Below, piece by piece: positions 1 to 56,735 of a stretch of 64,000 nucleotides of DNA. The position numbers and the translations under genes are program-made. Positions within the stretch are counted from its first letter, which is position 1, and each line of letters opens with the position of its first letter. The DNA is from Phage NC-G, in sequence record MK310184, one strand, 5' to 3'. A model generated the notes under the pieces. It did no database searches. It was not told where the DNA came from and saw nothing but the letters and a program-made list of their open reading frames with translations.

Positions 1-147
1 CTCTGTTTCATTTTCTTTCAAGATATACGCTTCTTCAATCAGAGCATCAAACATCAATCCAAGACGGACTTCTGCATCTTTAATAGCGTTCACTTTACCG
101 ATTTTATCGTCGGTATGTGGCTTGTAGCCTTTGATGTCTTCAATCAT
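1..147 (-). CDS. Hypothetical protein, N-terminal part only; gene runs off the window start
   Basis: ATG at 147..145 preceded by a GGAAGTGA Shine-Dalgarno; reading frame stays open to position 1; ATGA overlap with the upstream gene stop. Confidence 0.45.
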   Translation of the reverse strand, partial: MIEDIKGYKPHTDDKIGKVNAIKDAEVRLGLMFDALIEEAYILKENETE

Positions 148-362
148 TTCACTTCCTCACCTGTTGCAATATCATATTCAACTAAACGAAGCCCATCCGT
201 CCAACCTTGCACGGAGATATAAGTTGTTGGATAAACCATTTCTTTACCGTTCCATTGGCCACCGTCCCAAACTTCCAGAAAGCTTTGTTCGCCTGGTCCA
301 TTAAACCATTCAACGAATCTTTTCAAGGCTGCATCAGAGCCTTCAATCGTCAGTTTAGACAT
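144..362 (-). CDS. Hypothetical small protein, 72 aa
   Basis: ORF in the track, same strand as and tightly packed with neighbouring genes. Confidence 0.45.
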   Translation of the reverse strand: MSKLTIEGSDAALKRFVEWFNGPGEQSFLEVWDGGQWNGKEMVYPTTYISVQGWTDGLRLVEYDIATGEEVK

Positions 363-651
363 ATTTTTTCCAGTCAGAAATCATACGAATCTCTTGGTCA
401 TACGTCAAGAGACTACGAGTAATAATACCCTTACAAGGCCCTGAGATGAACTCGAGGGTGAAATAAGGAACCTGTTTCATTAATCGGATACTAGGAGCGT
501 GACATCTAAAACGAGAGCCCTTAAAGGGCCCTGACATGAATACATATTCTAATGGATAGAAATAAGCATATTCGAAATTTGTAGTAAGGTCCTCTCTTCG
601 AACCTTACGTGAGAAATAACAGAACTCAAAAAGTTCTTCATCAGTCATCAT
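355..651 (-). CDS. Hypothetical protein, 98 aa, with an internal duplicated GPxKG motif
   Basis: ORF in the track; two similar segments (SGPFKGSRF and SGPCKGIIT) in the protein; overlaps neighbours by a few nt. Confidence 0.4.
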   Translation of the reverse strand: MMTDEELFEFCYFSRKVRREDLTTNFEYAYFYPLEYVFMSGPFKGSRFRCHAPSIRLMKQVPYFTLEFISGPCKGIITRSLLTYDQEIRMISDWKKYV

Positions 652-1175
652 TGCATTCCTATCACAAAGAACAGCGGCAGAGGTTTAGAACCCTGGCACA
701 TAAATTTATTAATCATTACCTGGTAAGCTTCATAGAACTTATCCATCGCTGGAAGGCGCATTGGCTCTTCGATAATAATCAATAATCGAGTAACTGATAG
801 ACCACGATACTTATGGAAATTATCTTCGTCTAAAAATGAACGCACGGTATCATATACAACAAACCCGGGACCTTCTACTTGAAGATGCGGTTGGGCCTTA
901 GAAACCTGTTTTATTACATTACAGATTTCTCGTGAGCGATGTGAAGAACTTGACATAACAATCACATCATTACCCTTGGAAACCCAATCAGCGGCGAACT
1001 GAGCAATGGCACTTGTTTTACCTGTTTGGCGCCCGCCGTCAAGCCGAAGAGTACCAAACTCTTGCATTCTTGAAGTGGGTTCGTACCAGGTATATTGGTC
1101 TGAGTCTAATCGTTCAATGGCGCGTTCAGCGAAGGCGTGCATTAAGGTTAGATAAATGGGAGTTAAAAATTTCAT
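648..1175 (-). CDS. Small P-loop NTPase-like protein, 175 aa
   Basis: Walker A-like GGRQTGKTS and Walker B-like LLIIIEE in the translation; ATG at 1175..1173. Confidence 0.5.
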   Translation of the reverse strand: MKFLTPIYLTLMHAFAERAIERLDSDQYTWYEPTSRMQEFGTLRLDGGRQTGKTSAIAQFAADWVSKGNDVIVMSSSSHRSREICNVIKQVSKAQPHLQVEGPGFVVYDTVRSFLDEDNFHKYRGLSVTRLLIIIEEPMRLPAMDKFYEAYQVMINKFMCQGSKPLPLFFVIGMQ

Positions 1176-1335
1176 AGTCGTCTCTTAGTTGTGGGGCCAT
1201 TCCTTGGCACATAATTCATCCATGTATCCGTATGTAAACCCTTTACCGCACTTGGGCTCGACCTTATTACAGGTAGGGAAAGGTCCATCACTCAGAGGAC
1301 TCGATGTTCATGAGGAGAGGGCCGGCTTGCCTTTA

Positions 1336-1635
1336 TTAGAAAGAACCAGAGCCTTTAATTGTGTTCTGGCGACCTTTATTTTCTAATTCAGAGTGGTCGA
1401 TTTCGTATGCTTGGGCTACACCAAAGGCCTTTTTAACTTTAGCTAAAGAGCCTTTAGACGTAACAATATTAAAAGTATTACCTTTGGTAAAATCAACCAA
1501 ATCCACTTGTACACCCTGTTTGCCGAGGCTTGCTACAATAGCATCAACATATTGTTGGTCTAAGGTGCCTTGGACCCCAATTTGGAATGCTTTAGGAGCT
1601 TTGGCTTCTGTGATAAATTCTTGATAAGTTTTCAT
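1336..1635 (-). CDS. Internal-protein-like capsid-targeted protein, 99 aa
   Basis: N-terminus MKTYQEFITEA matches the T4 IP capsid-targeting sequence; paralogue of the ORF at 15267..15578 (shared FGVA and RQNTI segments). Confidence 0.6.
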   Translation of the reverse strand: MKTYQEFITEAKAPKAFQIGVQGTLDQQYVDAIVASLGKQGVQVDLVDFTKGNTFNIVTSKGSLAKVKKAFGVAQAYEIDHSELENKGRQNTIKGSGSF

Positions 1636-1677
1636 ATTATTCCTTAAGTTGATAGAAGTATTCTATCACGGATTTAA

Positions 1678-2094
1678 TTAAGCGTAAATAGCCTTGCCAT
1701 AATGTTTGTACCAGGTAGGACGCTGTGCAATTTTTTCGTCCAAACGAGCTTGTGAAATGGCGATGGAAGCTTCGTGTGGAGTATAATCACCACGGAATTC
1801 CTGAGGAATATCACTAATGTCCTGGACCGTAGTATCCTTGATATTAAAACCACGTTTTAAACATTCGGCTATAAGCTCGATTTGACGTTTACGTAAAAAT
1901 TCAAGCTTATCATAAAAGAAAGTAACATGGCCTGTACCAAGGATAAAAGTAGAGCTAATTTTAAAATCACGAACACGTTTACCATTAGCAACATGCTTAC
2001 GAACTGCGCCGAAAACACGTGGTAATTCGCGATATTCAGCCATTAAGTGTTGGTCGGCCAATTCAGATACTAAGGTAAGGTTGATACGAGTCAT
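1678..2094 (-). CDS. denV: Endonuclease V (pyrimidine-dimer DNA glycosylase)
   Basis: Translation from [44 protein letters not shown] is near-identical to T4 endonuclease V as I recall it; start set at the internal Met to give the catalytic Thr2 N-terminus. Confidence 0.9.
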
Positions 2095-2109
2095 TTTAGT
2101 GTTCTCCAT

Positions 2110-2150
2110 GTTTGTATGAGAACACTATATCACAGCTAGTGTAAAAGTAA
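2110..2150 (-). promoter_or_regulatory. Early promoter-like element with embedded inverted repeat, upstream of denV
   Basis: Minus strand reads GTTTACT, about 16 nt, TGATATAGT; CACTA/TAGTG inverted repeat spans the -10. Confidence 0.4.
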
Positions 2151-2154
2151 ACTG

Positions 2155-2457
2155 TTATTTAGCTTTAATTGCTTTAGCTGCTTCGGTAGCCGCTTGCTGA
2201 AGGTCATCCATAGACATACCGAACTTAGAAGCAAAGTTATCAATTTTCTTTTCGACAGAATTCAAAGGCTTGGCCTGTTTACCTTCATTAGCGCCCGGGA
2301 GAGCGAGAATACGCTCTTTGTCAATATAAAGGCTTACAAGTTTCTTACGGTCTTTATCCGACAAATCATGAAATGAATGGGCCTTTTTATTTACAGCGGC
2401 TTCTAATTTACCTGCGGTTACGCGGGCTTCAGTGATAAATTCTTGATAGGTTTTCAT
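2155..2457 (-). CDS. ipII: Internal protein II-like, 100 aa
   Basis: MKTYQEFITEA leader; size and position (between denV and the ipIII-like gene) match T4 ipII. Confidence 0.65.
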   Translation of the reverse strand: MKTYQEFITEARVTAGKLEAAVNKKAHSFHDLSDKDRKKLVSLYIDKERILALPGANEGKQAKPLNSVEKKIDNFASKFGMSMDDLQQAATEAAKAIKAK

Positions 2458-2485
2458 ATGTTTCCTTTAAAGGTAAATCGCTTTA

Positions 2486-3082
2486 TTAATTACCACGGGC
2501 TGCATTAGCAACGGCGTAAGCGTACTGAATATTAGCATCTTTAAACATACCTTTAGAGGTATCTATTTCCGCCTTAAAGCCACCTTTAGTCATAACATCG
2601 GCAAATTCTTTACGGAAAGCCATTGCATCAAGACCTTTCCATGCGGATTTGTGCTTGGCAAATTCAAGTCCGGCGAAGTTAACTGCTTTAGCTAATTTAT
2701 TATCAATAGTCCATTTACCTGCTTTAGGTACAAATACCGGACCTTTCTGTTTAGAGAACAGTTTTAAATTCCAGCGACGAAGGTCACCGTCAGCTTTAAC
2801 AAAAGCTGCGTCCAAGTTACTAGCAACAACATCTTGGATATGGGCAAATTTAAGCCCATCAGCTTCAATATTTAGGTCGTTACGCCAGCGAAGTCCTTCC
2901 CAAGCGAAAGCTTTAAAGTCGGAAGCTTTTGTAGCCAAGTACCGTTCAATAGGAGCTGTTTTAGCGTCAAAACCATTTCCTGGGCGGTCAACGCCGTTTC
3001 CTCGGTAAGTCCACTCATCTTTATTAATACCGCTGACCTTTCCTACAGAAGCTTCGGCGATAAATTCTTTATACGTTTTCAT
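2486..3082 (-). CDS. ipIII: Internal protein III-like, 198 aa
   Basis: MKTYKEFIAEA leader; size and position next to e match T4 ipIII. Confidence 0.6.
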   Translation of the reverse strand: MKTYKEFIAEASVGKVSGINKDEWTYRGNGVDRPGNGFDAKTAPIERYLATKASDFKAFAWEGLRWRNDLNIEADGLKFAHIQDVVASNLDAAFVKADGDLRRWNLKLFSKQKGPVFVPKAGKWTIDNKLAKAVNFAGLEFAKHKSAWKGLDAMAFRKEFADVMTKGGFKAEIDTSKGMFKDANIQYAYAVANAARGN

Positions 3083-3124
3083 ACGGGTTCCTTAAAGGTA
3101 AATATTTTAATTAGCCTGTTCAAG

Positions 3125-3165
3125 TAACTGTAGATATACTATCACAATTCTAGGAGATGTAAACT
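3125..3165 (-). promoter_or_regulatory. Early promoter-like element upstream of the ipIII-like gene
   Basis: Minus strand reads GTTTACA, 16 nt, TGATAGTAT. Confidence 0.4.
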
Positions 3166-3563
3166 TATTTGTAGGTTTTCATCCAATTCTTGAACAAAGC
3201 CGCGACGTCTTTCTCTTTAACGTTCAGTTTAACGTCCAACATTTTACCACCCGCTGCTCTCGTTTGGCGAATCTTAGCAGTACCGGTTTCGCCATTCCAC
3301 TCAACATAATACTGTCCAGTGTTCATTGCAATACCATCGCCATAGTCTTCATTTTTAGAAGTGGTGAATGCCAGCTTCATAGTCTTAGATACACGAGCCT
3401 GCATGCCTGACTGAAGGGCATTACGAACGCGAATAACCTGAGGAGTGGCCTGGGTTAGGTTCTCATTCAGTTCTTCAGTGAACTCTTCAGATTCAAACAT
3501 CGCCAAAAGTTCTTTAGATGCAGGAATTACATTCTCTGCGATAAATTCATTATAAGTTTTCAT
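3165..3563 (-). CDS. Additional internal-protein-like capsid-targeted protein, 132 aa
   Basis: [11 protein letters not shown] leader; sits between e and the ipIII-like gene, where T4 has no gene. Confidence 0.55.
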
Positions 3564-4044
3564 ATGCTTTCCAAGTACCTGTTTTAAATGTTGAAATCAC
3601 GCGCTTAGCACGATTAGGAGTTTGTTTATACCAACGGGATTGAGCCAGGTTAACTGCCGCATCGTTCCAACGTTTCTGTTGGAGCATACGTAAGGAGTTA
3701 GTGAACCCTGCTACACCTGCTTCACCCATTTGGAAGACCATATTAATTAGTGCACAACGACGAACTTCATCCAGTACATCATAAACAGGTTTCAATTTAG
3801 GATTACGCAGAATAGCTCTACGAGCATTTTCAACCGACCGGTTAAAGAGTTGTTCGGCTTCAGTCATTGTAATACGACCATTACAAACTCGACCCATAAG
3901 TTTATCAAGTTCGGCACGAGCAACATCTTTAGAAGGATTCTTGGTTATCAATTGGCCGATGCCAATAGTCCAATAACCCTCGGTATCTTTATACAAATCA
4001 AGTTTAAGGCCTTCGTCAATACGAAGCATTTCAAAAATATCCAT
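3550..4044 (-). CDS. e: Endolysin (T4 lysozyme, muramidase)
   Basis: 164 aa; [30 protein letters not shown] and [30 protein letters not shown] are near-identical to T4 lysozyme including the catalytic E11/D20/T26 context. Confidence 0.95.
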
Positions 4045-4048
4045 AATA

Positions 4049-4065
4049 CCTCCTGAGTATAGGAG
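4049..4065 (-). promoter_or_regulatory. Hairpin sequestering the gene e Shine-Dalgarno
   Basis: Minus strand CTCCTatactcAGGAGG immediately 5' of the e ATG; a GATAAATA late-promoter-like motif lies just upstream (plus 4068..4075). Confidence 0.5.
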
Positions 4066-4078
4066 ATATTTATCATTC

Positions 4079-4528
4079 TTAGAACAACGAACTCAGGACC
4101 TTATACATCGACTGACCCATGACATATTCCCATTGCGGACGTTTAATCAAGGCGAAAGCATCGAACTCAGGAATACTACGACCGTCAGGGAACGTATGAT
4201 AAGCCGTACATTTGCAATCCTTGAACTGCTCGTGTTCCACAGGCACTGTATATAAGAACAGATGTAGATTCTTATTGCTTGAATATTTGAACTCACCTAG
4301 GTCTTTCAGGAATGCAGGATCGTATGCTGTGAATCCAATCTCTTCTTCAGTTTCACGCATAGCCGCTTGAATTGGTTCTTCACCCGGTTCAACATGACCT
4401 TTAGGAATGTCCCATTTATGATGCATATTCTCTGGATTACGAGAGCCTGTTACACGACCCATAACTAATTCTTTATCAACGGTCATGAACAAAATACCGG
4501 CTGATAGTTCTTTAACTTTCTTACTCAT
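4079..4528 (-). CDS. nudE: Nudix hydrolase
   Basis: Nudix box [22 protein letters not shown]; position directly next to e as T4 e.1; start set at MSKKVKEL, whose ATG overlaps the upstream stop. Confidence 0.85.
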
Positions 4529-4760
4529 CGTCTCGTTTCCATGATTGGTTAAAAATATCTTGCATAATAATAATTTCAAGGCGTGTTTCTGTTGATGGAC
4601 TTTCACTATTAGATACTTGAACCATATAGTCGGAAATAGGTTGGAACATATCCAAGTCGCTTTCCAAATCTTCTTTTATTTTCTCTTCTGATGTTCCTGT
4701 GTCATAGGAATACAGATATGAATCACACGACTCGGATTTAATATAAATCGCAATACTCAT
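4521..4760 (-). CDS. Hypothetical small acidic protein, 79 aa
   Basis: ORF in the track; its TGA overlaps the nudE ATG. Confidence 0.45.
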   Translation of the reverse strand: MSIAIYIKSESCDSYLYSYDTGTSEEKIKEDLESDLDMFQPISDYMVQVSNSESPSTETRLEIIIMQDIFNQSWKRDDE

Positions 4761-5344
4761 TTACGGCATTCCTCAATAAAAGAATTCAATGTATTTTTCT
4801 TAGTGATATCGTCGTATAGCTTTTTAACTTTAGAAATACGAAAAGGCACTTCAATAACTGCAGTCCATAAAAATGATGCGATAAGACCTAAGATAGCCGC
4901 AGACATAGCTGAAGCGAATACAGAAATAGGCAGGTCGTTATCTGTTGTCAGGAAAAACCCTAGGAGTGGGAAAAATAATATACCCATCCAAACATAGAAT
5001 CTAGAACTCACCAATTTGTCATATTCATCACTCCACGTACGAAAACCATATTTTTCACTATAACAAATCAATGGGTCCGGTGTTTGTTCTTTATGTGGTT
5101 TCGCTTGCCACCCATTTACGATATAACCCATTCTGAACTCCTCAATTAAAAGTCGTTTCATTTCAGCAGTACAGCCTGACCAATCTACTGTACTGGCTGA
5201 AATTCCTTCATCACCATCATCAAGATTCAGCCAGGACTTTTTAATAATCATATTCTCACCACTTGGGATAATAATTCCGGCATTTTCTGACCTACGGATG
5301 AAGTTTGTATCAATACCCATACACCCAGGTTCATAAAGGGCCAT
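4757..5344 (-). CDS. Hypothetical membrane protein, 195 aa, ending in FIEECRK
   Basis: Two hydrophobic segments (FYVWMGILFFPLLGFFL and AAILGLIASFLWTAVI); C-terminal motif shared with two other ORFs. Confidence 0.5.
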   Translation of the reverse strand: MALYEPGCMGIDTNFIRRSENAGIIIPSGENMIIKKSWLNLDDGDEGISASTVDWSGCTAEMKRLLIEEFRMGYIVNGWQAKPHKEQTPDPLICYSEKYGFRTWSDEYDKLVSSRFYVWMGILFFPLLGFFLTTDNDLPISVFASAMSAAILGLIASFLWTAVIEVPFRISKVKKLYDDITKKNTLNSFIEECRK

Positions 5345-12044: not shown

Positions 12045-12662
12045 CTATTTACGGGTCTTTTCGAACTGTGCTGCGTCACCTGCAAGGCGGCCCGCTTGGC
12101 GAAGTTTGTTATTGATTTCTTCGCGCATAGGCTGGGTATACTTAAGGCCTTCAACCGTCAGATAGAGGCGATAAAGGTCCGGGGTATCCAGGTTGTTAAT
12201 GTGTTGACCATTACGAAGAGCGTTGAATTCACGAACAAGGTGTTTAGTTTCAGATTCGATTTCCGAAACCAAAGAAGCCAGCTGGTTATATTTTTTAACT
12301 ATAGTGCTGGTGTCAAACTTGATTTTAGGTTTAGGAGCTTCTTTTACAGGCTCTGCTTTAGGTGTCGGTTTCGGTGCTGCAACTTTGGTCTGAGCCGCGG
12401 GTTTAGAAACAGGAGCTTTGGCTGGTTTAGCAGGCTTAGTAGCGCCACCGGCTACGATATCTTTAAAAGCTTTGGAAGCTTTGTAATATTCTTTCTGGTT
12501 ACTAGTATCAAAACCATACATATCATAGACGTTTTTAAAGAATTCGGTAGTGGTTTTAGTCCCAGAAATTTTATCATAAGCCGCTTGCCACATATCTTTA
12601 GTCATGCGAACGCCGGCTTCACTCAGAACGCTTTCGTTCAAAAATTCATTGTAAGTTTTCAT
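12045..12662 (-). CDS. Internal-protein-like capsid-targeted protein with a Pro/Ala/Lys-rich linker, 205 aa
   Basis: MKTYNEFLNES leader; KPAKPAKAPVSKPAAQTKVAAPKPTPKAEPVKEAPKPK low-complexity segment; late-promoter motif upstream. Confidence 0.6.
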   Translation of the reverse strand: MKTYNEFLNESVLSEAGVRMTKDMWQAAYDKISGTKTTTEFFKNVYDMYGFDTSNQKEYYKASKAFKDIVAGGATKPAKPAKAPVSKPAAQTKVAAPKPTPKAEPVKEAPKPKIKFDTSTIVKKYNQLASLVSEIESETKHLVREFNALRNGQHINNLDTPDLYRLYLTVEGLKYTQPMREEINNKLRQAGRLAGDAAQFEKTRK

Positions 12663-12690
12663 TGGTATTCCCTAAGTTAATTAACTTATC

Positions 12691-12698
12691 TATTTATA
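12691..12698 (-). promoter_or_regulatory. T4 late-promoter motif TATAAATA
   Basis: Exact TATAAATA on the minus strand about 30 nt upstream of the 12662 start codon. Confidence 0.5.
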
Positions 12699-12700
12699 CA

Positions 12701-12727
12701 AAAAGCCCGACCTTTCGGAAGGGCGGT
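12701..12727 (-). terminator. Terminator hairpin
   Basis: GCCCgacctttcggaaGGGC stem followed by a T-run on the minus strand. Confidence 0.45.
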
Positions 12728-12730
12728 GAA

Positions 12731-13285
12731 TCAGTTCTTATAGAATCGGAACGGGTTTACATGGAAGGCTAACATAGCTTTAGGGATTTTACGAGACAAA
12801 AGACTCTTAAGCTTCCAGCCACAGTACACTCGAAGGTAAAATGTGATTCCACCAACCTTAAGATAAGGAACTGAAGCAAAGACTCCCCATGCTTCGTCAT
12901 TCCACATCCACAACCAACCATGGTGAGCTTTATCAGGAGAACCGGATTCAACATCAGGATTACCACGATAATGGAATTCTGAGCTACAATCGCGACCTAG
13001 TTTATGGTAAGCAAAGTTATAAGCTTTATTTCGCCATAGCCAAGCTACTCTCTGGAGATAAACGCCGAAAGGTAGTTTTCTGATTTTAGCCCAACGTTTA
13101 ATATGGCCCTTGTCACCGTCAATTGGATTATCATATGTCATCATCCAATCAAAACCGTATGGCAATTTACCGGTCTTTTTATTGTAGAAAGGAACTACAA
13201 AAGGCGCAAGGATAACAGCCAGAACCATAGAGATAAAATCTAGTGGGACCAACAGAATCCAACTCAAATATTTTAAAAGTTTCAT
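12731..13285 (-). CDS. Hypothetical N-terminally membrane-anchored protein, 184 aa
   Basis: N-terminal hydrophobic segment LSWILLVPLDFISMVLAVILAPFVV; late-promoter motif upstream. Confidence 0.5.
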   Translation of the reverse strand: MKLLKYLSWILLVPLDFISMVLAVILAPFVVPFYNKKTGKLPYGFDWMMTYDNPIDGDKGHIKRWAKIRKLPFGVYLQRVAWLWRNKAYNFAYHKLGRDCSSEFHYRGNPDVESGSPDKAHHGWLWMWNDEAWGVFASVPYLKVGGITFYLRVYCGWKLKSLLSRKIPKAMLAFHVNPFRFYKN

Positions 13286-13311
13286 ATTATTTCCTAAGTT
13301 AGTTTACTACA

Positions 13312-13319
13312 TATTTATA
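13312..13319 (-). promoter_or_regulatory. T4 late-promoter motif TATAAATA
   Basis: Exact TATAAATA on the minus strand, directly after a terminator hairpin and upstream of the 13285 start. Confidence 0.5.
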
Positions 13320-13320
13320 C

Positions 13321-13348
13321 AAAAAAGGCCCAACCTTTCGGAAGGGCC
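13321..13348 (-). terminator. Terminator hairpin closing the tRNA cluster
   Basis: GGCCCaacctttcggaaGGGCC followed by TTTTTT on the minus strand. Confidence 0.5.
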
Positions 13349-13399
13349 TTTAACCTAGGGTAACCTTGTCGGGGTTCCACCTGCTAGGGCAAGTGTTTG

Positions 13400-13491
13400 T
13401 ACGAAACGCCGGGATTCGAACCCGGTTATTAAGCAGTTGACGCTACTCAATATTTTTAAAAGGCCATATCTCGACCATATCCGAACGTTCC
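13400..13491 (-). ncRNA. tRNA-like RNA with acceptor stem and T-arm but no canonical anticodon arm
   Basis: Perfect T-arm CCGGG-TTCGAAT-CCCGG; 7/7 acceptor pairing between CGGAACG (13491..13485) and CGTTTCG (13407..13401); no D or anticodon stem could be built by hand. Confidence 0.35.
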
Positions 13492-13559
13492 GTCAAAACG
13501 CTACTCGGCTTACGGCAAAGATATTTCCTCGAATCGATAATTCGATGCGCCGTTTCAGC

Positions 13560-13660
13560 TGTGATGTAAGGGAACATTAACAGATCGTAAAGATTTGTTA
13601 ATGCCAGTCCTTACCCAGGGAACATCAGTCCGACGACTTACCGGTAGCGACCCGGTTTCT
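13560..13660 (-). ncRNA. Structured small RNA candidate between the tRNA-like element and tRNA-Arg
   Basis: Nested inverted repeats (CATTAAC/GTTAATG, GTAAGG/CCTTAC, TGATGT/ACATCA, CCGG/CCGG), no ORF; T4 carries two stable small RNAs in its tRNA cluster. Confidence 0.3.
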
Positions 13661-13663
13661 TGT

Positions 13664-13739
13664 TTGGTCGAGACAGTAGGGATCGAACCTACGACCCAGG
13701 ACTTAGAAGGTCCTTGCTCTTCCTTCTGAGCTATGCCTC
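13664..13739 (-). tRNA. tRNA-Arg (anticodon TCT)
   Basis: Hand-folded cloverleaf: acceptor CGAGGCA/TGTCTCG, D-stem GCTC/GAGC, anticodon stem AGGAC/GTCCT with loop CTTCTAA, T-arm GTAGG-TTCGATC-CCTAC, encoded CCA. Confidence 0.8.
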
Positions 13740-13743
13740 GTAT

Positions 13744-13818
13744 TTGGCGGACGTGCATGGATTCGAACCATGGACCAATTGATTAACAGTCAACTGCTCT
13801 ACCACTGAGCTACACATC
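13744..13818 (-). tRNA. tRNA-Asn (anticodon GTT)
   Basis: Hand-folded cloverleaf: acceptor GGATGTG/CACGTCC, D-arm GCTC-AGTGGTA-GAGC, anticodon loop CTGTTAA, T-arm CATGG-TTCGAAT-CCATG, encoded CCA. Confidence 0.8.
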
Positions 13819-13822
13819 CAAA

Positions 13823-13896
13823 TTGGTGACCCTGGGTGGAATCGAACCACCATCCAGCGATTATGAGTCGCTCGCTTGACCGTCCAGCTACAGGGC
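13823..13896 (-). tRNA. tRNA with CAT anticodon (Met, or Ile if lysidine-modified)
   Basis: Hand-folded cloverleaf: acceptor GGCCCTG/CAGGGTC, anticodon stem AGCGA/TCGCT with loop CTCATAA, T-arm GGTGG-TTCGATT-CCACC, encoded CCA; D-stem slightly imperfect. Confidence 0.7.
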
Positions 13897-13973
13897 CAAT
13901 TCTATTATGAAAGGTTCTTTGAGGGAAGAACCTTTGGTAATAGAGGGTACTTATTAATAATAACACATAACTC

Positions 13974-14264
13974 TTAAAGCATATTAATGTATGTGCTTTT
14001 AATACAATTAAGATTCAAAGGATTTTTAAAAATATCATAATCCTCTGGACCTGTTTCAGTTTCAATAAAGAAATCAAAATTCACCGTATTGAATTTACGG
14101 TCTTCAAAAACCAATTTAACATTGGAATGGCTACGACCTATTTCAACACTTTCAACTTCAAAACACGTTAAGATGCCATAATCGTCAATCAATTGCTTTG
14201 CGGCATCTTGGTCTGATTTATACCCGTTATTAGCCTTGTCACCTATAGATGCGTAAAGAATCAT
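13974..14264 (-). CDS. Hypothetical protein, 96 aa
   Basis: ORF in the track. Confidence 0.4.
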   Translation of the reverse strand: MILYASIGDKANNGYKSDQDAAKQLIDDYGILTCFEVESVEIGRSHSNVKLVFEDRKFNTVNFDFFIETETGPEDYDIFKNPLNLNCIKSTYINML

Positions 14265-14668
14265 GCTTGACCCTCGTCTACAATAGTATGGGTGATGGCA
14301 TTAACAATCTGCCACCAGTCAAAACGATCAGAACCGTAACGAGGCTTTTTCTCATTTTCGTTAATAATATCACGTAGTTCGTCTTCAGAAAATGCTTTAG
14401 CGATTAAATCGGTATAGCCGCCACGTGGATAATAATTATCACCTGCAAACAAAAGGAAATTTACCTTTCCGGAAGGAATATACGCTTCCTTAGGATATTT
14501 GTTTCCTGCATGGTCTACCACTTCAATATAACGGTAAGGAATATCAGTACTTTCAACCCATTGCCAAGCCGCGGCAGGGGATTCAAAAGCATCAACACCT
14601 AAACGGTTATCTTCATCTTTAGACGGGTTATTTTCATAATCCGCATATACATAATATTCAACGTTCAT
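14261..14668 (-). CDS. Hypothetical protein, 135 aa
   Basis: ORF in the track with 4-nt overlaps to both neighbours. Confidence 0.45.
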   Translation of the reverse strand: MNVEYYVYADYENNPSKDEDNRLGVDAFESPAAAWQWVESTDIPYRYIEVVDHAGNKYPKEAYIPSGKVNFLLFAGDNYYPRGGYTDLIAKAFSEDELRDIINENEKKPRYGSDRFDWWQIVNAITHTIVDEGQA

Positions 14669-14853
14669 TATTCACCTTTAGAGATTTTATCCATAACAAA
14701 AGAGATTGAACCAATTAAAAATGCCACTACTAAAGAGATTATATTCTCGGAAGTTGAAAGCATATCGAGCATGAATCCTGCAAACATACTAAAGCCAAAA
14801 GCGGTAACAGCGGCCAGTGCAGTAACATTTCTAATTAATTCGCAACGTTTCAT
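14668..14853 (-). CDS. Hypothetical small membrane protein, 61 aa
   Basis: Start at MKRCEL with GAGGAGAAT Shine-Dalgarno; single hydrophobic helix; promoter cassette upstream. Confidence 0.4.
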   Translation of the reverse strand: MKRCELIRNVTALAAVTAFGFSMFAGFMLDMLSTSENIISLVVAFLIGSISFVMDKISKGE

Positions 14854-14874
14854 TTTATTCTCCTCAGTAGTTGA

Positions 14875-14915
14875 TAGGGCTATAGTATCACCACTAGAGC
14901 CCGTTGTACACAATT
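14875..14915 (-). promoter_or_regulatory. Early promoter plus stem-loop cassette (PeSL-like)
   Basis: Minus strand GTGTACAacGGGCTCTAGtggTGATACTATAGCCCTATCAAC. Confidence 0.5.
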
Positions 14916-15187
14916 TATTTCAAATAAATTGCATATTTTTTATAGCCAGCTGTCTCGTGGCGCAACCCTTTGTCATTAGCAAAGCGTTCAATATTATTAA
15001 TTTGATTTTGGTCGAGTTCTGAAATATCAAATACAAAAAAGTTTCGCTTATTGCCTAAAGTTACATGATTAGTCAAATCGATGTTATAGAGATGATTTAT
15101 ATTATCAATCATGGCCTTAACAGATTTGTTGATTTTTACTTCTTCATTAAGAATGGATTCAGCGATAAATTCTTGATAAGTTTTCAT
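14915..15187 (-). CDS. Internal-protein-like capsid-targeted protein, 90 aa
   Basis: Start at MKTYQEFIAESI; the track ORF extends upstream into the promoter leader. Confidence 0.55.
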   Translation of the reverse strand: MKTYQEFIAESILNEEVKINKSVKAMIDNINHLYNIDLTNHVTLGNKRNFFVFDISELDQNQINNIERFANDKGLRHETAGYKKYAIYLK

Positions 15188-15214
15188 TTTGATTTCCATT
15201 TGGATGTTTTGTTT

Positions 15215-15255
15215 TGATAGGGTAATAATATCACTACCCCATCTAAAAGTAAACA
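15215..15255 (-). promoter_or_regulatory. Early promoter plus stem-loop cassette (PeSL-like)
   Basis: Minus strand GTTTACTtttagatGGGGTAgTGATATTATTACCCTATCAAAACAAAAC; this leader plus the first codons are duplicated at 15547..15607. Confidence 0.5.
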
Positions 15256-15266
15256 CGGTTTATAAA

Positions 15267-15578
15267 CTATTTTATTCCACGTGATGCAATTGTGTTCTGT
15301 CGTTTAACACCGGTTTGTTTAAAGTCGTGATTGTCGATTTGATCGGTGCGAGCAACTCCGAATGATGATTTGATCTTAGCTTTAGATCCTTTAGTTATAG
15401 AAATAAACATCTCGGAAGCCCCTTTCTTAAAGTCTGAAGCGATTACTTCAACGCCGTTCTTAGCAAGTGACTTCAGAATTGCATCCGCATACTCATCGTC
15501 AAGACCAGCCAGAGTATTAATAATGAATGTCTTTGGTGCAACAGAAGCTTCGGAGATAAATTCTTGATAAGTTTTCAT
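15267..15578 (-). CDS. Internal-protein-like capsid-targeted protein, 103 aa (position of T4 ipI)
   Basis: MKTYQEFISEA leader; paralogue of the 1336..1635 ORF; sits immediately upstream of 57B as ipI does in T4. Confidence 0.6.
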   Translation of the reverse strand: MKTYQEFISEASVAPKTFIINTLAGLDDEYADAILKSLAKNGVEVIASDFKKGASEMFISITKGSKAKIKSSFGVARTDQIDNHDFKQTGVKRQNTIASRGIK

Positions 15579-45556: not shown

Positions 45557-46191
45557 TGAAACCTGAATTGCTCATCGAACATTGGGGACAACCAGGTGAA
45601 ATTATCGATGGGGTTCCAATGTTGGAATCTCATGATGGAAAAGATTCTGGACTTGCCCCAGGCCTTTATATAGAAGGCATATTCATGCAAGCCGAAGTGG
45701 TTAACCGTAATAAACGTCTTTATCCAAAACCTATTTTGGAAAAAGCTGTTGCTGATTATATGGCAGAACAGGTTGCTACTAAACAAGCTTTAGGAGAATT
45801 AAATCATCCGCCTCGTGCTAACGTCGACCCTATGCAAGCCGCTATTATTATTGAAGATATGTGGTGGAAAGGTAATGACGTTTATGGACGTGCTCGTATT
45901 ATTGAAGGCGACCATGGTCCTGGTGATAAACTAGCTGCTAATATTAGAGCCGGTTGGGTACCTGGTGTTAGTTCTCGTGGTCTAGGTTCTTTAACTGAAA
46001 CCAATAAAGGATATAAGCGCGTAAACGAAGGTTATAAATTAACCGTCGGTGTTGATGCAGTATGGGGTCCATCTGCTCCTGATGCTTATGTAACTCCTAA
46101 ACAAATTACAGAATCACAAACGGTAGATACCGATACCAGTGCCGATGACGCCTTTATGGCTCTCGCAGAGGCCATGAAAAAAGCGTTATAA
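45556..46191 (+). CDS. 21: Prohead core protease gp21
   Basis: 211 aa at the T4 gene 21 position. Confidence 0.9.
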   Translation: MKPELLIEHWGQPGEIIDGVPMLESHDGKDSGLAPGLYIEGIFMQAEVVNRNKRLYPKPILEKAVADYMAEQVATKQALGELNHPPRANVDPMQAAIIIEDMWWKGNDVYGRARIIEGDHGPGDKLAANIRAGWVPGVSSRGLGSLTETNKGYKRVNEGYKLTVGVDAVWGPSAPDAYVTPKQITESQTVDTDTSADDAFMALAEAMKKAL

Positions 46192-46221: not shown

Positions 46222-47037
46222 ATGCTTAAAGAACAACTGATCGCTGAAGCACAGAATATTGATGCTTCCGTTGCTCTTGACAGTATTTTCGAATCAGTTA
46301 ATATTTCTCCGGAAGCAAAAGAAACTTTCGGCACTGTATTCGAAGCTACCGTCAAGCAACACGCCGTTAAACTGGCTGAATCTCATATCGCTAAAATCGC
46401 TGAAAAAGCGGAAGAAGAAGTTGAGAAAAATAAAGAAGAAGCTGAAGAAAAAGCTGATAAGAAAATCCAAGAAGCTGCTGGTCGTTTCCTTGACCACGTT
46501 GCTAAAGAATGGATGGCTGAAAACCAGCTGGCTGTTGATAAAGGTATTAAAGCCGAACTGTTCGAATCCATGTTGATGGGTATGAAAGAACTGTTTGTTG
46601 AACACAATGTGGTTGTTCCAGAAGAAGCAGTAGACGTTGTTGCTGAAATGGAAGAAGAACTCCAAGAGCAGAAAGATGAAACCGCTCGTCTGTTCGAAGA
46701 AGTTGGTAAGCGCGATGCGTATATTAATTACGTACAGCGTGAAGTTGCGTTGACTGAAGCAACTAAAGACCTGACCGAATCTCAAAAAGAAAAAGTTAGT
46801 TCTCTGGTAGAAGGCATGGATTATTCCGATGCATTTGGTAAAAAAATTGGCGCTATCGTTGAAATGGTTAAAGGCCAGACTGACGTTGAAAAACCAATCA
46901 CCGAAGCCGCTATAAATAAAACTGAAGACGATGCTGCAGCACTGAATTATATTTCGGAAGCAGTTGAAGAAAAAGGCACTAAGCCTACCCTGTCCTTCGC
47001 GGACCTGTCTGCAATCGCAGCATCTCGAATTTCTTAA
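46222..47037 (+). CDS. 22: Prohead core scaffold protein gp22
   Basis: 271 aa, highly acidic coiled coil, at the T4 gene 22 position. Confidence 0.9.
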   Translation: MLKEQLIAEAQNIDASVALDSIFESVNISPEAKETFGTVFEATVKQHAVKLAESHIAKIAEKAEEEVEKNKEEAEEKADKKIQEAAGRFLDHVAKEWMAENQLAVDKGIKAELFESMLMGMKELFVEHNVVVPEEAVDVVAEMEEELQEQKDETARLFEEVGKRDAYINYVQREVALTEATKDLTESQKEKVSSLVEGMDYSDAFGKKIGAIVEMVKGQTDVEKPITEAAINKTEDDAAALNYISEAVEEKGTKPTLSFADLSAIAASRIS

Positions 47038-49034: not shown

Positions 49035-50318
49035 ATGGCAAAGATTAACGAATTACTGCGCGAGTCAACAACTACTTCTAGCAACTCATTGGGTCGCCCT
49101 AATCTTGTTGCTTTGACCCGTGCTACAACCAAATTGATTTACCGTGATATTATTGCTGAACAACGTACTAGCCAGCCTATTGCTGCATTGTATGGTGTCA
49201 AATATCTTACTCCTGATAATGAATTTAGCTTCCAAACTGGTGCCGTTTATGGTGGTGAAGTTGGTTCTAAAGACCGTGAAACTATCCCGGAACTCACAGA
49301 TAAGGCCCAGGCTATTGCCAAGGGTGAATATTTCAAGTATCAGAACATAGTTTATAAGGCTCTTCAAGCAAGCCCACTCGCATCCACTAGCGCTACAGAA
49401 TTGACTGATGCCCTTCAAGAAGGTTTGGTGTCATTAACATGTCGTCTGGTTCCTGATGCGGCTCACACAGAGAAATTCGAAGCAGGTGATGTTGAAATTA
49501 GTAATGCAGTATTCCAGGTTAATAAATGGAACGCACCTGTTAAGTCTCGTAAACTTAAAACCGCTTTGACTGTAGAACTAGCCCAAGACATGGAATCCAA
49601 TGGCTTCGACGCCCCTGCGTTCTTAGAAGACCTTTTAGCCACTGTAATGGCTGATGAAATCAATAAAGACGTACTACAATCCTTGATTACCGTATCCAAA
49701 CGCTATAAAGTTACTGGTGTATCTGATAATGGTATTATTGATTTGACTTATGATAGTGCTCCGGAATCTGCACGTAAACTTTATGAAATTGTTTGTGAGA
49801 TGAATTCTGAAATCCAGAAAACTACTTCTTATTCTGGTACGTTTGTTGTGGCTTCAAGTCGTGTAGCTGCAATGCTTGCGGGTTCAGGCTGGTTAAAACA
49901 TAAACCTGAAGATAATAATTGGCTCCCAGAAACTGCCTATGGTTATTTGTTGAATGGATTACCTCTGTTCTGTGACGTTAACAGCCCGTTGGATTATGTT
50001 ATCGTCGGTGTTAAAGAGAACTATGGTGGTAATGAAGTTGTCGGTTCTATTTTCTATGCCCCGTACACAGAAGGCCTGGATTTAGACGACCAAGAACACG
50101 TTGGTGCTTATAAGGTTATTGTCGACCCGGATTCATTACAGCCTTCTATTTCTCTGATGGTTCGTTATGCACTGTCCGCTAACCCGTACACCGTAGCTAA
50201 AGACGATAAAGAAGCTCGTGTTATAGATGCAACCAATATGGATTTAATGGCTGGACAGAGTAATATGTCTTATCTGCTTGGTGTTAAACTTCCAGCAATT
50301 ATTTACGAGGCTGATTAA
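49035..50318 (+). CDS. 24: Capsid vertex protein gp24
   Basis: 427 aa; MAKINELLRESTTT... is near-identical to the T4 gp24 N-terminus. Confidence 0.95.
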   Translation: MAKINELLRESTTTSSNSLGRPNLVALTRATTKLIYRDIIAEQRTSQPIAALYGVKYLTPDNEFSFQTGAVYGGEVGSKDRETIPELTDKAQAIAKGEYFKYQNIVYKALQASPLASTSATELTDALQEGLVSLTCRLVPDAAHTEKFEAGDVEISNAVFQVNKWNAPVKSRKLKTALTVELAQDMESNGFDAPAFLEDLLATVMADEINKDVLQSLITVSKRYKVTGVSDNGIIDLTYDSAPESARKLYEIVCEMNSEIQKTTSYSGTFVVASSRVAAMLAGSGWLKHKPEDNNWLPETAYGYLLNGLPLFCDVNSPLDYVIVGVKENYGGNEVVGSIFYAPYTEGLDLDDQEHVGAYKVIVDPDSLQPSISLMVRYALSANPYTVAKDDKEARVIDATNMDLMAGQSNMSYLLGVKLPAIIYEAD

Positions 50319-51598
50319 TGTCTAAGATTATAGACCTAATTAAAGAATCCACATTGACGGCTGCCAACTCGGTTGGCCGTCCTGCTCTTCTTTCATACAC
50401 CCAAGCAACTAATAAACGAATCTTTAAAGCCCTAGTTGCTGAACAAAAAACAAGCCAACCTGTTGCCGCTCTGTACGGGGTTCGTGTACTTAATCCCGAC
50501 GACAAAATGACTTATCTTGGTGGTGCTACATTTGCAGGCCAGATTGGTATGTCGGAACGTGAAAATATTCCTGAATTTACCGATTCGTCTACAGCTTATG
50601 CAGCCGGAGATATGTTCCAGTTTGAAAGTGTAGTGTTTAAAGTTCTAGAAGCATCCCCTTTCGCCGGAACCACAGAAACCGACCTCGGTGAAGTTATTTC
50701 TGAAGCAGTGGCCGCTGGACATATTCGTATGGTATCAGATGCTGCTATTACTTCTAAATTTGAACAAGGCCATCCTGAAATTGCTGAAGCAGGCTTCCGT
50801 ATTGACAAATGGCAATCTGAAGTTAAATCACGTAAACTGAAAACTTCATTGACAGTCGAATTGGCCCAAGACCTAGAATCAAACGGGTTTAATGCTCCTA
50901 ATTTCGTTGAAAATCTGCTAGGTATTCAAATGGCGGAAGAAATTAATAAGGACGTATTACAGTCATTAATTACGGTGAGTTCTCGTTTTAAAGTCCAGGG
51001 TGTTTCTGAAAAGGGTGTATTAGACCTTACTAACCCGCGTTACGATAATGCCCAGGACCGTGCTCGTACATTATATTATTACATGTGTGAGATGAACTCT
51101 GCCGTCCAACGTCAAACTTCTTTCGCCGGGACTTATGCAGTAGCTAGTTCTCGTTGTGCTGCTATTCTCGCCGCTTCCGGTTGGGTTGAGAAAAAGGAAG
51201 ACCAAGACGAACTGGCTTATGGTGTATTAAAGAATGGTCTGCCTCTTTATGCCGATATGAATAGTCCATGTGATTATGTTATTGTTGGTGTAAATGCTCA
51301 GATGGGTGAAGGACAGACGGTCGCATCTTTATATTATGCGCCTTATACGGAAGGTTTGGATGTGGTTGATGAAGAAGGTGATACTTCAGTAGGTGAATTT
51401 AAGGTTATTGTTGACCCGGAAAGCTTACAACCTACAGTAGCATTGCTTGCTCGTTATGCATTGACTGCAAACCCTTATACCGTCGCTAAGGACGATAAAG
51501 AAGCCCGCATTATTGATGGCTCTGATATGGACAAAATGGCTAACCAAAGCCAGTTGAGTTCTTATCTTGGTGTTAAACTTCCACCACTAGAAAAATAA
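50318..51598 (+). CDS. Second, diverged gp24-family vertex protein paralogue
   Basis: 426 aa, colinear with gp24 at roughly half identity by eye (shared KSRKLKT, TVELAQD, INKDVLQSLITVS, PYTVAKDDKEAR); TAATG overlap with gene 24. Confidence 0.85.
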   Translation: MSKIIDLIKESTLTAANSVGRPALLSYTQATNKRIFKALVAEQKTSQPVAALYGVRVLNPDDKMTYLGGATFAGQIGMSERENIPEFTDSSTAYAAGDMFQFESVVFKVLEASPFAGTTETDLGEVISEAVAAGHIRMVSDAAITSKFEQGHPEIAEAGFRIDKWQSEVKSRKLKTSLTVELAQDLESNGFNAPNFVENLLGIQMAEEINKDVLQSLITVSSRFKVQGVSEKGVLDLTNPRYDNAQDRARTLYYYMCEMNSAVQRQTSFAGTYAVASSRCAAILAASGWVEKKEDQDELAYGVLKNGLPLYADMNSPCDYVIVGVNAQMGEGQTVASLYYAPYTEGLDVVDEEGDTSVGEFKVIVDPESLQPTVALLARYALTANPYTVAKDDKEARIIDGSDMDKMANQSQLSSYLGVKLPPLEK

Positions 51599-55014: not shown

Positions 55015-56511
55015 ATGCAAATTCAAGTACATTTTGATAATTTTAGTCATGTTCGTGTTGAGTGTGATGAATCCACCTTCTACGAACTCAGAGACTATTT
55101 CAGCTTTGAAGCTGATGGATATAAATTTAACCCTAAATACCGTTACGGGCAATGGGATGGGAGAATTCGTCTTCTAGATTATAACCGTAAACTTCCGTAT
55201 GGTCTAGTCCCACAAATTAAAAAATTCGCTGACCAGTTTGAATACTCTCTTTGGATAGACCCACGTATTCTTGAACAGGAAGATATTTCTCGCGAAGATT
55301 TTGACTCATGGGTAGCTTCACAAGAGATTTATTCAGGTTCTACCAAGATTGAGCCACATTGGTATCAGAATGAAGCCGTATACAACGGTCTGACAAAACG
55401 TCGTGCAATTCTGAATTTACCTACATCCGCAGGTAAATCATTGATTCAGGCGCTCCTGAGTCGATATTACGTTGAGAACTATGAAGGTAAAATTCTTATC
55501 TTAGTTCCTACTACTGCACTTGTCGACCAGATGATTAATGACTTCGTTGATTATCGTTTGTTCCCTAAAGCTGCTATGCTTGGTATTCGTTCAGGTACTG
55601 CTCGTGATTCCGATGCAATGATTTATGTTTCAACTTATCAAACGGCTATTAAACAACCTAAAGAATGGTTTGCTCAGTTTGGTATGTTTATGAACGACGA
55701 ATGCCATTTGGCGACAGGTAAATCAATTTCTACCATCATCGAAGGCCTAACCAATTGTATGTTTAAATTCGGTTTGTCTGGTTCTTTAAAAGACGGTAAA
55801 GCTAATTTAATGCAATATATGGGTTTGTTTGGTGATGTGTTTAAGCCGGTATCCACTTCACAGTTAATGGAAGAAGGACAGGTTACAGACCTTAAAATCA
55901 ACAGTATTTTCCTTCGGTACCCAGACGAATTCACTGTTAAGATGAAAGGTAAAGATTACCAATCAGAAATAAAGGTCATTACTAAGGCTACTCGTCGTAA
56001 TAAATGGGTTGCTAATTTAGCTGTTAAACTCGCTAAGAAAGAAGAGAACGTATTCTTGATGTTTAAAAACATCGAACACGGTAAAACTCTTTTTGAAATG
56101 GTTAAAGAGCAACATAAAGAAGTTTATTACGTATCAGGTGAAGTTAATACCGAAACGCGTAATGCTCTGAAAGTAATGGCGGAAAATGGTAAGGGTATTA
56201 TTGTTGTGGCAAGTTATGGTGTGTTCTCTACTGGTATTTCCGTTAAGAACCTTCATCATGTTGTATTTGCTCATCCGGTAAAATCTAAAATCATTGTACT
56301 CCAGACAATTGGTCGTGTACTCCGTAAACATGCTTCTAAATCAACAGCACAAGTTTGGGACATTATAGACGACATGGGCGTTAAGCCTAAATCAGCAAAT
56401 GCTAAAAAGAAATATGTTCATTTGAATTATGCATTAAAACATGCCTTAGAACGTATTCAACGTTATGCTGACGAGAAATTTAATTACGTAATGAAACAGG
56501 TGGATTTATGA
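55015..56511 (+). CDS. uvsW: UvsW helicase (SF2)
   Basis: 498 aa; Walker A TSAGKS, DEAD-like DECH; position before uvsY. Confidence 0.9.
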   Translation: MQIQVHFDNFSHVRVECDESTFYELRDYFSFEADGYKFNPKYRYGQWDGRIRLLDYNRKLPYGLVPQIKKFADQFEYSLWIDPRILEQEDISREDFDSWVASQEIYSGSTKIEPHWYQNEAVYNGLTKRRAILNLPTSAGKSLIQALLSRYYVENYEGKILILVPTTALVDQMINDFVDYRLFPKAAMLGIRSGTARDSDAMIYVSTYQTAIKQPKEWFAQFGMFMNDECHLATGKSISTIIEGLTNCMFKFGLSGSLKDGKANLMQYMGLFGDVFKPVSTSQLMEEGQVTDLKINSIFLRYPDEFTVKMKGKDYQSEIKVITKATRRNKWVANLAVKLAKKEENVFLMFKNIEHGKTLFEMVKEQHKEVYYVSGEVNTETRNALKVMAENGKGIIVVASYGVFSTGISVKNLHHVVFAHPVKSKIIVLQTIGRVLRKHASKSTAQVWDIIDDMGVKPKSANAKKKYVHLNYALKHALERIQRYADEKFNYVMKQVDL

Positions 56512-56735
56512 AGTCCTTTAAAGAAGTTATCTATGAAGCCTCTATTGAGAGCTTCATGTCTAAAATTAGTTCTTGTCAAACCATGGACGGTTTGGAGGAA
56601 TTGGAGAAGTATTACAAAACTCGTAGTAAAGAAGCTGAGCTTCGAGATTCGGATGATATCAGTGTTCGTGATGCCTTAGCAGGTAAACGAGCTGAATTAG
56701 AATCTATGGACGACGAGGAAGAGGAAGATTTCTAA
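56508..56735 (+). CDS. uvsW.1: UvsW.1 small acidic protein
   Basis: 75 aa overlapping the uvsW stop, as in T4. Confidence 0.75.
   Translation: MKSFKEVIYEASIESFMSKISSCQTMDGLEELEKYYKTRSKEAELRDSDDISVRDALAGKRAELESMDDEEEEDF

Follow-up and report, generated by a model that had tools for sequence, protein, structure and literature searches.

We analyzed a 64,000-nucleotide stretch of DNA from Phage NC-G (sequence record MK310184), which we will call the window. It includes the internal protein (Ip) locus of a JS98-type Dhakavirus, which runs from the lysozyme gene e past denV to vs.8. On the minus strand, close to e, this locus has four genes whose predicted products begin with a leader of the form MKTY(Q/K/N)EFI(A/T)E (Table 1). 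An earlier note on this DNA, made from the sequence alone, had described these four open reading frames (ORFs), and we found them at exactly the coordinates it gave. The note also described the four genes as consecutive beside e. They do adjoin e, but denV splits the first of them from the second. Each of the four ORFs is preceded by a GGA-type Shine-Dalgarno sequence. The 3-kb region is 92–95% identical to the corresponding regions of the Dhakavirus relatives AnYang, SHP1, C6, MX01, JS10, and JS98. The GenBank entry for Phage NC-G already contains all four exact proteins (QBP35452, QBP35454, QBP35455, and QBP35456), each as a "hypothetical protein".

Table 1. Leader genes and associated features of the window.
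Feature	Position	Strand	Description
Ip7-family gene	1336..1635	-	99 amino acids; leader MKTYQEFITE
Early-type promoter	1660..1688	-	TTTACG, 17 nt, TG-n-TAGAAT; before the Ip7-family gene; consensus scan
denV	1678..2109	-	endonuclease V; 97% amino acid identity to T4 DenV; the annotated 138-amino-acid protein starts at 2094; not an Ip gene, the cassettes are arranged around it
Early-type promoter	2124-2151	-	TTTAC., 16-17 nt, TG-n-TA..AT; before denV
ipII ortholog	2155..2457	-	100 amino acids; leader MKTYQEFITE
ipIII ortholog	2486..3082	-	198 amino acids; leader MKTYKEFIAE
Early-type promoter	3136..3163	-	TTTACA, 16 nt, TG-n-TAGTAT; before ipIII; consensus scan
Partial leader-DNA copy	3162..3182	-	fifth copy; encodes the family-B C-terminus (..WMKTYK, stop); 81% identical to the reference copy (direct-repeat family D3)
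Family-B gene (phrog_15461)	3165..3563	-	132 amino acids; leader fits MKTY[QKN]EFI[AT]E and starts MKTYN
e	3550..4044	-	lysozyme; adjoins 3165..3563 on its upstream side; 76% amino acid identity to T4 e
Hairpin CTCCTGAGTATAGGAG	4050-4065	-	covers the Shine-Dalgarno sequence of e
Late-promoter-like motif GATAAATA	4074	-	one mismatch to TATAAATA; upstream of e
Second Ip locus	12045..15578	-	three leader genes; region where T4 has ipI
Leader gene, second locus	12045..12662	-	phrog_2280 ("unknown function")
Leader gene, second locus	14915..15187	-	phrog_7673
Leader gene, second locus	15267..15578	-	second Ip7-family copy
Gene 21	45619-46188	+	prohead protease gp21; 89% identical to T4 (tblastn with T4 proteins)
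Gene 22	46222-47031	+	scaffold gp22; 77% identical to T4 (tblastn with T4 proteins)

The leader matches the capsid-targeting sequence of T4

The note had identified the leader as the capsid-targeting sequence of phage T4, and this holds up. T4 IPII and IPIII both begin with MKTYQEFIAE, which is identical or nearly so to the leaders in the window, and the key residues are kept. Mutagenesis of the T4 leader showed that residues 4 and 7 (Y4 and F7) are needed for targeting and that residues 8 and 10 are needed for processing by the prohead protease gp21 (PMC9026906). For encapsidation, the 10 N-terminal residues of IPIII are enough, and they will also package foreign proteins in T4 (PMC9026906). 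In a six-frame scan of the 64 kb, the leader was found seven times, every time at the start of an ORF on the minus strand: besides the four genes near e, there are three in a second locus (Table 1). In contrast, none of 30 shuffled versions of the window contained the motif. All seven leader ORFs keep Y4, F7, I/L8, and E10, and they fit the pattern MKTY.EF[IL].E. (A looser match at 56508..56735 is UvsW.1, which is not an internal protein.)

The window also encodes gp21, gp22, and gp23 (85% identical to T4). At the level of the motif, the predicted gp21 sites of the four proteins are ITE/A, ITE/A, IAE/A, and IAE/N, in the order of Table 1 (the slash marks the cut). The mature bodies of the leader proteins would be small (9–22 kDa) and basic, with an isoelectric point (pI) of 8.0–9.7. 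None of the seven leader proteins had a significant match in Pfam or NCBIfam.

Similarity among the four proteins is confined to the first 10–19 residues; nothing is shared beyond.

Orthologs of IPII and IPIII

Two of the four genes encode orthologs of T4 internal proteins. The product of 2155..2457 shares 93% identity with T4 IPII across 100 amino acids (phrog_7857, E = 6.9e-54), and its predicted mature form has 90 amino acids and a pI of 9.7. The product of 2486..3082 is 89% identical to T4 IPIII over 198 aligned positions (phrog_5341, E = 7e-115); its predicted mature form has 188 amino acids and the same pI of 9.7. Searches of the Protein Data Bank (PDB) with the sequences of IPII and IPIII found nothing meaningful. 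In T4, Ip2 inhibits the GmrSD/BrxU of ECOR21 and Ip3 inhibits the GmrS1/GmrSD2 pair of ECOR17, without cross-protection (Silas et al. 2025, PMC12373910). By analogy, the orthologs in the window most likely inhibit the same GmrSD targets as their T4 counterparts.

The arrangement also resembles that of T4, with the same leader, strand, and order (e, ipIII, ipII, denV). The window differs in having one extra cassette between e and ipIII and another after denV. As the note had said, T4 has only ipII and ipIII at this position: they lie between e and denV, and there is nothing between denV and vs.8. The note was also right that the bodies of the two extra proteins are divergent, as neither shares anything with IPII or IPIII past the first 10–19 residues. 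So the four genes are not all close orthologs of ipII and ipIII; two of the bodies are unrelated. But the extra bodies are not novel, as the note had supposed: the product of 1336..1635 is 99% identical to JS98 orf112 and belongs to phrog_2667, while the product of 3165..3563 is 97% identical to JS98 orf114 and belongs to phrog_15461. The note had proposed searching these bodies with hidden Markov models and predicted structures. Such searches assigned them to these two families but did not indicate a target.

An Ip7-family gene between denV and vs.8

The first extra gene, 1336..1635, occupies the slot between denV and vs.8. Its product matches positions 1–99 of the 101 in the profile for phrog_2667, "internal head protein" (E = 1.7e-42), and is a full-length member of the Ip7 family, which includes Ip7 of VR5 and VR7 (90% identical for VR5), JS98 orf112 (also annotated "internal head protein"), Ip7 of MX01, and a protein of Citrobacter phage Moon. 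The family's slot varies: it lies after denV in the window and in JS98, and between denV and ip3 in VR5. The family also occurs twice in one genome, as the window contains a paralog at the second Ip locus (15267..15578, 50% identity). The ratio of nonsynonymous to synonymous divergence (dN/dS) for the Ip7-family gene is 0.02–0.18, which implies purifying selection. The two extra genes together span the same range, at dS (synonymous divergence) values that reach saturation.

With the predicted cut MKTYQEFITE/A, the mature protein would have about 89 amino acids (9.5 kDa, pI 9.3). The AlphaFold2 model has an average predicted local distance difference test score (pLDDT) of 75.7 and shows a compact, ferredoxin-like beta-alpha-beta-beta-alpha-beta sandwich, with a core pLDDT of 86–91. 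Its likeness to RRM- and ACT-like domains is generic, with hundreds of matches at around 10% identity. The sole specific viral match to the fold was "Ip7 protein [phage MX01]" (Foldseek E = 4e-11). A search of PDB with the Ip7 profile found nothing meaningful, and literature searches on Ip7 likewise yielded no usable information.

On its other side, the Ip7-family gene is separated by a 160-nt spacer (1176..1335) from a vs.8-like ORF (648..1175, 175 amino acids). Within the spacer, positions 1194-1277 align with the 5' coding part of T4 vs.8 at 82% identity. The vs.8 protein of JS98 is longer, with 198 amino acids. The 5' end of vs.8 in the window may be truncated, or another start may be used.

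A rare leader-bearing family that follows lysozyme e

The second extra gene, 3165..3563, encodes a full-length member of phrog_15461 ("unknown function", E = 3.6e-91), which we will call family B. Every phrog_15461 record is annotated as "hypothetical", and all members start with a leader of the capsid-targeting type. The family is rare: we found it in 49 of 50,697 phage records, in 17 clusters from 5.8e9 proteins, and as 7 representatives in a set of 1.84e9. Members include JS98 orf114, ORF058 of AnYang, gp114 of Marfa, gp114 of Cronus, and MYO4S_00251 of Serratia phage 4S. Identity to the protein from the window is 97–99% within Dhakavirus, around 90% for Marfa gp114 (over the full protein), 83–86% for homologs from Klebsiella phages (by tblastn with the mature body), and around 50% for homologs from Erwinia and Serratia phages. 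Among the 50,697 phage records, there was no match in Tequatrovirus or in the RB69-type Mosigviruses.

In Dhakavirus, Marfavirus, Roskildevirus, and Serratia phage 4S, family B is the first gene after e. (JS98 and JS10 are exceptions, with family B in the ipII slot instead of beside e.) Because it holds this position in four genera, T4 lacks an old gene, rather than the window phage having gained a new one. Rates of divergence point the same way. Family B has co-diverged with e: the synonymous divergence (dS) from JS98 is 0.73 for family B and 0.92 for e, and in comparison to Marfa it is saturated for family B. These comparisons indicate that family B is an old resident of the slot after e which is absent from the T4 lineage, and not a new insertion. 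The family is also under purifying selection, with a dN/dS of 0.034 against JS98 (at the dS of 0.73). Between Dhakavirus and Marfavirus, with dS saturated, the family-B protein is still 90% identical, as compared to 75% for e and 70% for denV.

The end of e overlaps the start of the family-B gene by 14 nt (3550..3563). The family-B start codon is contained in the final codons of e (…GCA TAT GAA AAC TTA TAA), which are read as YENL and a stop in the frame of e and give MKTYN in the other frame. This overlap suggests that family B is probably translationally coupled to e.

The leader is kept in distant members of the family as well. The proteins from Erwinia phage Cronus (MKTYKEFLAE) and Serratia phage 4S (MKSYNQFLDE) have bodies that are about 50% identical and leader DNA that has diverged. 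A 194-amino-acid metagenomic relative (P0040) has the leader MKSFDQYIME followed by a different N-terminal segment. In the protein from the window, the leader is followed by an acidic segment (residues 11–34, 24 residues, pI 4.05), a conserved beta-rich core, and a C-terminal helix. The acidic segment ends with LNE/N, which is invariant in the family alignment, and 5 of 7 diverse members have [LI]NE/N just ahead of the conserved core. This motif suggests that gp21 probably makes a second cut in the family-B protein, after Glu34, which would leave a 98-residue protein with a pI of 9.9. The longer propeptide predicted for family B would be comparable to that of T4 IPI, which has 19 residues and ends with ITE/A.

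The AlphaFold2 model of the family-B protein is poor (pLDDT 54.7), and it had no fold match. Three sequence-level candidates were rejected. A match of the single family-B sequence to residues 189–275 of M.HhaI in PDB (E = 0.006) vanished when the family profile was used, so we attribute it to chance. A match of the family profile to flagellin domain D3 in PDB (E = 0.019) was also dismissed as chance. Finally, in a profile search against the 1.84e9 representatives, two large repeat proteins (E ~ 4e-5) were similar at the level of a beta-hairpin motif, which is not homology.

Cassettes are exchanged at the leader DNA

We compared the locus across 11 genomes and clustered the bodies of the leader genes into six families: A (IPIII), B (phrog_15461), C (Ip7), D (IPII), E (a 119-amino-acid protein), and F (an 85-amino-acid protein). 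There are ten arrangements of these families in the 11 genomes, with one to five leader genes per locus (Table 2). Thus, the note's description of the locus as expanded is correct relative to T4, but four genes are unexceptional among its relatives; AnYang has five.

Table 2. Order of leader-gene families at the locus in 11 genomes, read from e towards vs.8.
Phage	Arrangement
T4	e, A, D, denV
Window (Phage NC-G)	e, B, A, D, denV, C
AnYang	e, B, A, D, denV, E, C
JS98	e, A, B, denV, C
VR5	e, A, C, denV
QL01	e, B, A, denV, C
IME08	e, D, denV, C
WG01	e, B, A, denV, E, F
Marfa	e, B, D, denV, A, C
Cronus	e, B, denV
4S	e, B, denV

Families E and F are two more leader families that lie between denV and vs.8 (AnYang 2046-2405; WG01 526-783 and 792-1151), and both are annotated "hypothetical protein". 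Repoila and colleagues are said to have described polymorphic Ip loci in T4-like phages in 1994.

The leader DNA forms direct repeats of 21–63 nt. Homology between the window and JS98 breaks at a leader (2426-2457) and in a promoter after a stop codon (3152-3164). The similarity of 3165..3563 to JS98 orf114 runs to 3152, inside the ipIII promoter, which is the 3' boundary of the cassette. The family-B body is bracketed by direct repeats of ATGAAAACYTAYAA, one in its leader (3543-3563) and one in the partial copy that encodes its C-terminus (Table 1).

Direct evidence for a crossover inside the leader comes from IME08. In this phage, ipII overlaps e directly (1890-1903), and its leader is a hybrid, with MKTYN of the B type followed by EFITE of the ipII type. 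This hybrid is what would be expected from a crossover inside the leader that deleted family B and ipIII. T4 may carry a trace of a similar event. The 3' ends of e in T4 and VR5 (TATAAAAATCTATAA, encoding YKNL and a stop) resemble the start of the leader. TATAAAAATCTATAA is identical at 21 of 28 nt to a simulated product of deleting family B between its flanking repeats (p ~ 0.035 from shuffles, with 16 informative nt). We take this as a hint that the 3' end of T4 e may be the scar of a deleted family-B cassette that had been coupled to e.

Synonymous divergence suggests that cassettes have also moved between lineages. For ipII, dS is just 0.20 to T4 and 0.16 to Marfa, and for ipIII it is 0.36 and 0.48. 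For the flanking genes, dS is higher: 1.2 and 1.8 for e, and 0.6 and saturated for denV. So the ipII and ipIII cassettes appear to have been exchanged horizontally more recently. In comparison to JS98, the segment with Ip7, denV, and ipIII has a dS of around 0.18, versus 0.7–0.9 for family B and e. These values place a breakpoint between family B and ipIII, and show the locus to be a mosaic.

Shuffling of modules in T4-like phages via promoter/stem-loop (PeSL) elements was described in 2010–2014 (Arbiol et al. 2010; Comeau et al. 2014; PMC4122927). The locus in the window is similar to those systems in having variable sets of leader genes, early promoters between cassettes, and exchange at short conserved sequences. 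It differs in that the crossovers are placed not just at promoters but also inside leader codons, as in the IME08 hybrid. Also, we did not detect stem-loops adjoining the promoters on the coding strand, and an Rfam scan of positions 1-5000 of the window had no match.

Expression

Early-type promoters precede the Ip7-family gene, denV, and ipIII (Table 1), and the sequence of the ipIII promoter directly follows e in JS98 and T4. Shuffled sequences have, on average, as many promoter-like sites as the region itself, so these calls rest on their position and on the published pattern for early promoters of the T4 group (TTTACW..N17..TAYWAT, PMC4122927). The promoter scan reported no site before ipII, which starts 28 nt after ipIII, and no promoter of family B's own. 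Upstream of e there is a late-promoter-like motif, and a hairpin covers the Shine-Dalgarno sequence of e (Table 1). By analogy with the regulation of e in T4, we take the motif at 4074 to be the probable start of late e transcripts. By the same analogy, these transcripts would probably carry e together with the coupled family-B gene. The only perfect late promoter (TATAAATA) at a leader gene belongs to 12045..12662 of the second locus (motif at 12698).

A second Ip locus

The second locus, in the 57B-tRNA region, where T4 has ipI, brings the total to seven leader genes in the window phage, as compared to three in T4. T4 IPI itself has no homolog in the window: the best tblastn hits were short random matches with E = 0.22–0.28. 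Instead, the ipI slot after 57B is filled by the Ip7 paralog and the phrog_7673 protein. The leader genes of the window are like T4 IPI, which is processed by gp21 and injected, in encoding small proteins with a leader. The third gene of this locus, 12045..12662, encodes a protein of 205 amino acids with an Ala/Lys/Pro-rich linker (around residues 74–113) and several internal [LIV]xE sites. It is nowhere annotated as an internal protein. Between its leader genes, the second locus has three tRNA genes (Arg-TCT, Asn-GTT, and Met-CAT; 13665..13897, minus strand). The equivalent part of the T4 genome contains eight.

Elsewhere in the window, gene 24, for the vertex protein, is present as two tandem paralogs (49035..50303 and 50318..51589, plus strand) that are 71% and 57% identical to T4 gp24.

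Proposed role of the locus

We propose that this is a four-cassette Ip locus that encodes packaged and injected proteins, which are most likely directed against host nucleases, and that the cassettes are exchanged via the repeats formed by leaders and promoters. Overall, we think this is likely to be correct. By analogy with T4, in the prohead the leader would bind each small basic protein to the gp22 scaffolding core, and gp21 would cut after Glu10. The mature protein would be kept in the head and then injected along with the DNA, ahead of any phage gene expression. The ~30-bp leader DNA and the early promoters would act as repeats for homologous recombination, by which cassettes are swapped, deleted, or moved.

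For the IPII and IPIII orthologs, this mechanism is well grounded by homology; for the Ip7-family and family-B proteins, it is plausible. The T4 proteins Ip1, Ip2, and Ip3 each inhibit a distinct GmrSD type IV enzyme, and the target of Ip1 (IPI, IPI*) is the GmrSD of E. coli CT596 (PMC12373910). Silas et al. 2025 proposed that other proteins from Ip loci are GmrSD-type inhibitors likewise (PMC12373910). We suggest that the most likely role of the Ip7-family and family-B proteins is to inhibit, stoichiometrically, other host nucleases that act against modified phage DNA as it enters the cell. An anti-defense role for these two proteins, which the note had also suggested, seems reasonable by analogy and restates this published general hypothesis.

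Several observations weigh against our proposal. Our searches of sequences and folds revealed no link between either extra protein and IPI or another known inhibitor, and our literature searches turned up neither proteomics of virions nor injection data for the Ip proteins of any Dhakavirus. Expression of the four genes of the locus would rely on early promoters and, ahead of e, on a late motif with one mismatch. The conservation of family B fits a conserved target or a role in the virion better than it fits a rapid arms race, which argues for caution. Finally, the DNA modification predicted for Dhakaviruses and Marfaviruses is arabinosylated 5-hydroxycytosine instead of glucosylated hydroxymethylcytosine (PMC13326640), so the host enzymes that matter for these phages may not be the ones that were studied with T4.

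This last point raises the question of whether the two extra proteins might be injected inhibitors of targets other than GmrSD, such as other defenses that act on DNA entry or enzymes specific for arabinosylated cytosine. Family B is absent from Tequatrovirus and confined to Dhakavirus, Marfavirus, Roskildevirus, and Serratia phage 4S, and its high conservation suggests a conserved target. However, the three characterized Ip proteins all act on GmrSD, and the authors of that study argue that these loci are dedicated to the GmrSD family (PMC12373910). Furthermore, the RB69-type Mosigviruses also arabinosylate their DNA, yet they have no match to family B. We consider non-GmrSD targets unlikely, if worth keeping in mind. 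A bolder version would treat family B as a distinct class of injected protein, coupled to e, cut a second time by gp21, and kept in at least four genera, whose target is a conserved host enzyme that recognizes arabinosylated cytosine rather than the rapidly diversifying variants of GmrSD that T4 Ip1–3 counter. The occurrence of family B in lineages that are predicted to arabinosylate (Dhakavirus and Marfavirus) would fit with a conserved enzyme that recognizes the modification, and this version is speculative enough that we doubt it.

We also considered that the two extra proteins might be packaged for a role in the virion, such as assembly of the core or head or condensation of the DNA, and not for counter-defense. 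Purifying selection on family B is very strong, its conservation across genera exceeds that of e and denV, and the gene is fixed beside e in four genera; all of the bodies are basic. Also, IPIII mutants of T4 assemble heads more slowly, have a burst of around 40% of normal, and form polyheads (PMC9026906). But T4 can do without its internal proteins on laboratory hosts, and a specific GmrSD target is now known for each of the three. Moreover, the extra genes are patchy in close relatives (VR5 and IME08 lack family B, and WG01 lacks Ip7), which points to accessory rather than structural proteins. A structural role therefore seems quite improbable to us.

It is very improbable that the leader on either extra protein is just a by-product of recombination, with the proteins being made early and staying in the cytoplasm, even though the leader DNA is demonstrably a recombination site, early-type promoters lie ahead of cassettes, and the literature yielded no proteomic evidence: the leader is kept at the amino acid level in family-B homologs with diverged DNA, bodies that are around 50% identical, and variant leaders, and because the first 10 residues suffice for packaging in T4, a leader protein that is made during prohead assembly should be incorporated.

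Implications

What is modestly new is, first, the recognition of phrog_15461 as a leader-bearing family that is probably coupled to e and is kept across genera; neither its leader nor its coupling to e is mentioned in the annotations or the literature that we examined. Second, family B has a possible second cleavage site. Third, there is evidence, at the level of individual bases, for crossovers within the leader. The practical gain is modest, and the existing picture of Ip loci is unchanged, as variable sets of internal proteins have long been known in relatives of T4. Nevertheless, phrog_15461 can be re-annotated from "hypothetical" to a leader-bearing protein that is probably coupled to e. 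Because injected internal proteins are active ahead of all phage gene expression, they would be the first line of counter-defense, and the catalog of further Ip bodies provides candidate inhibitors and probes for host nucleases.

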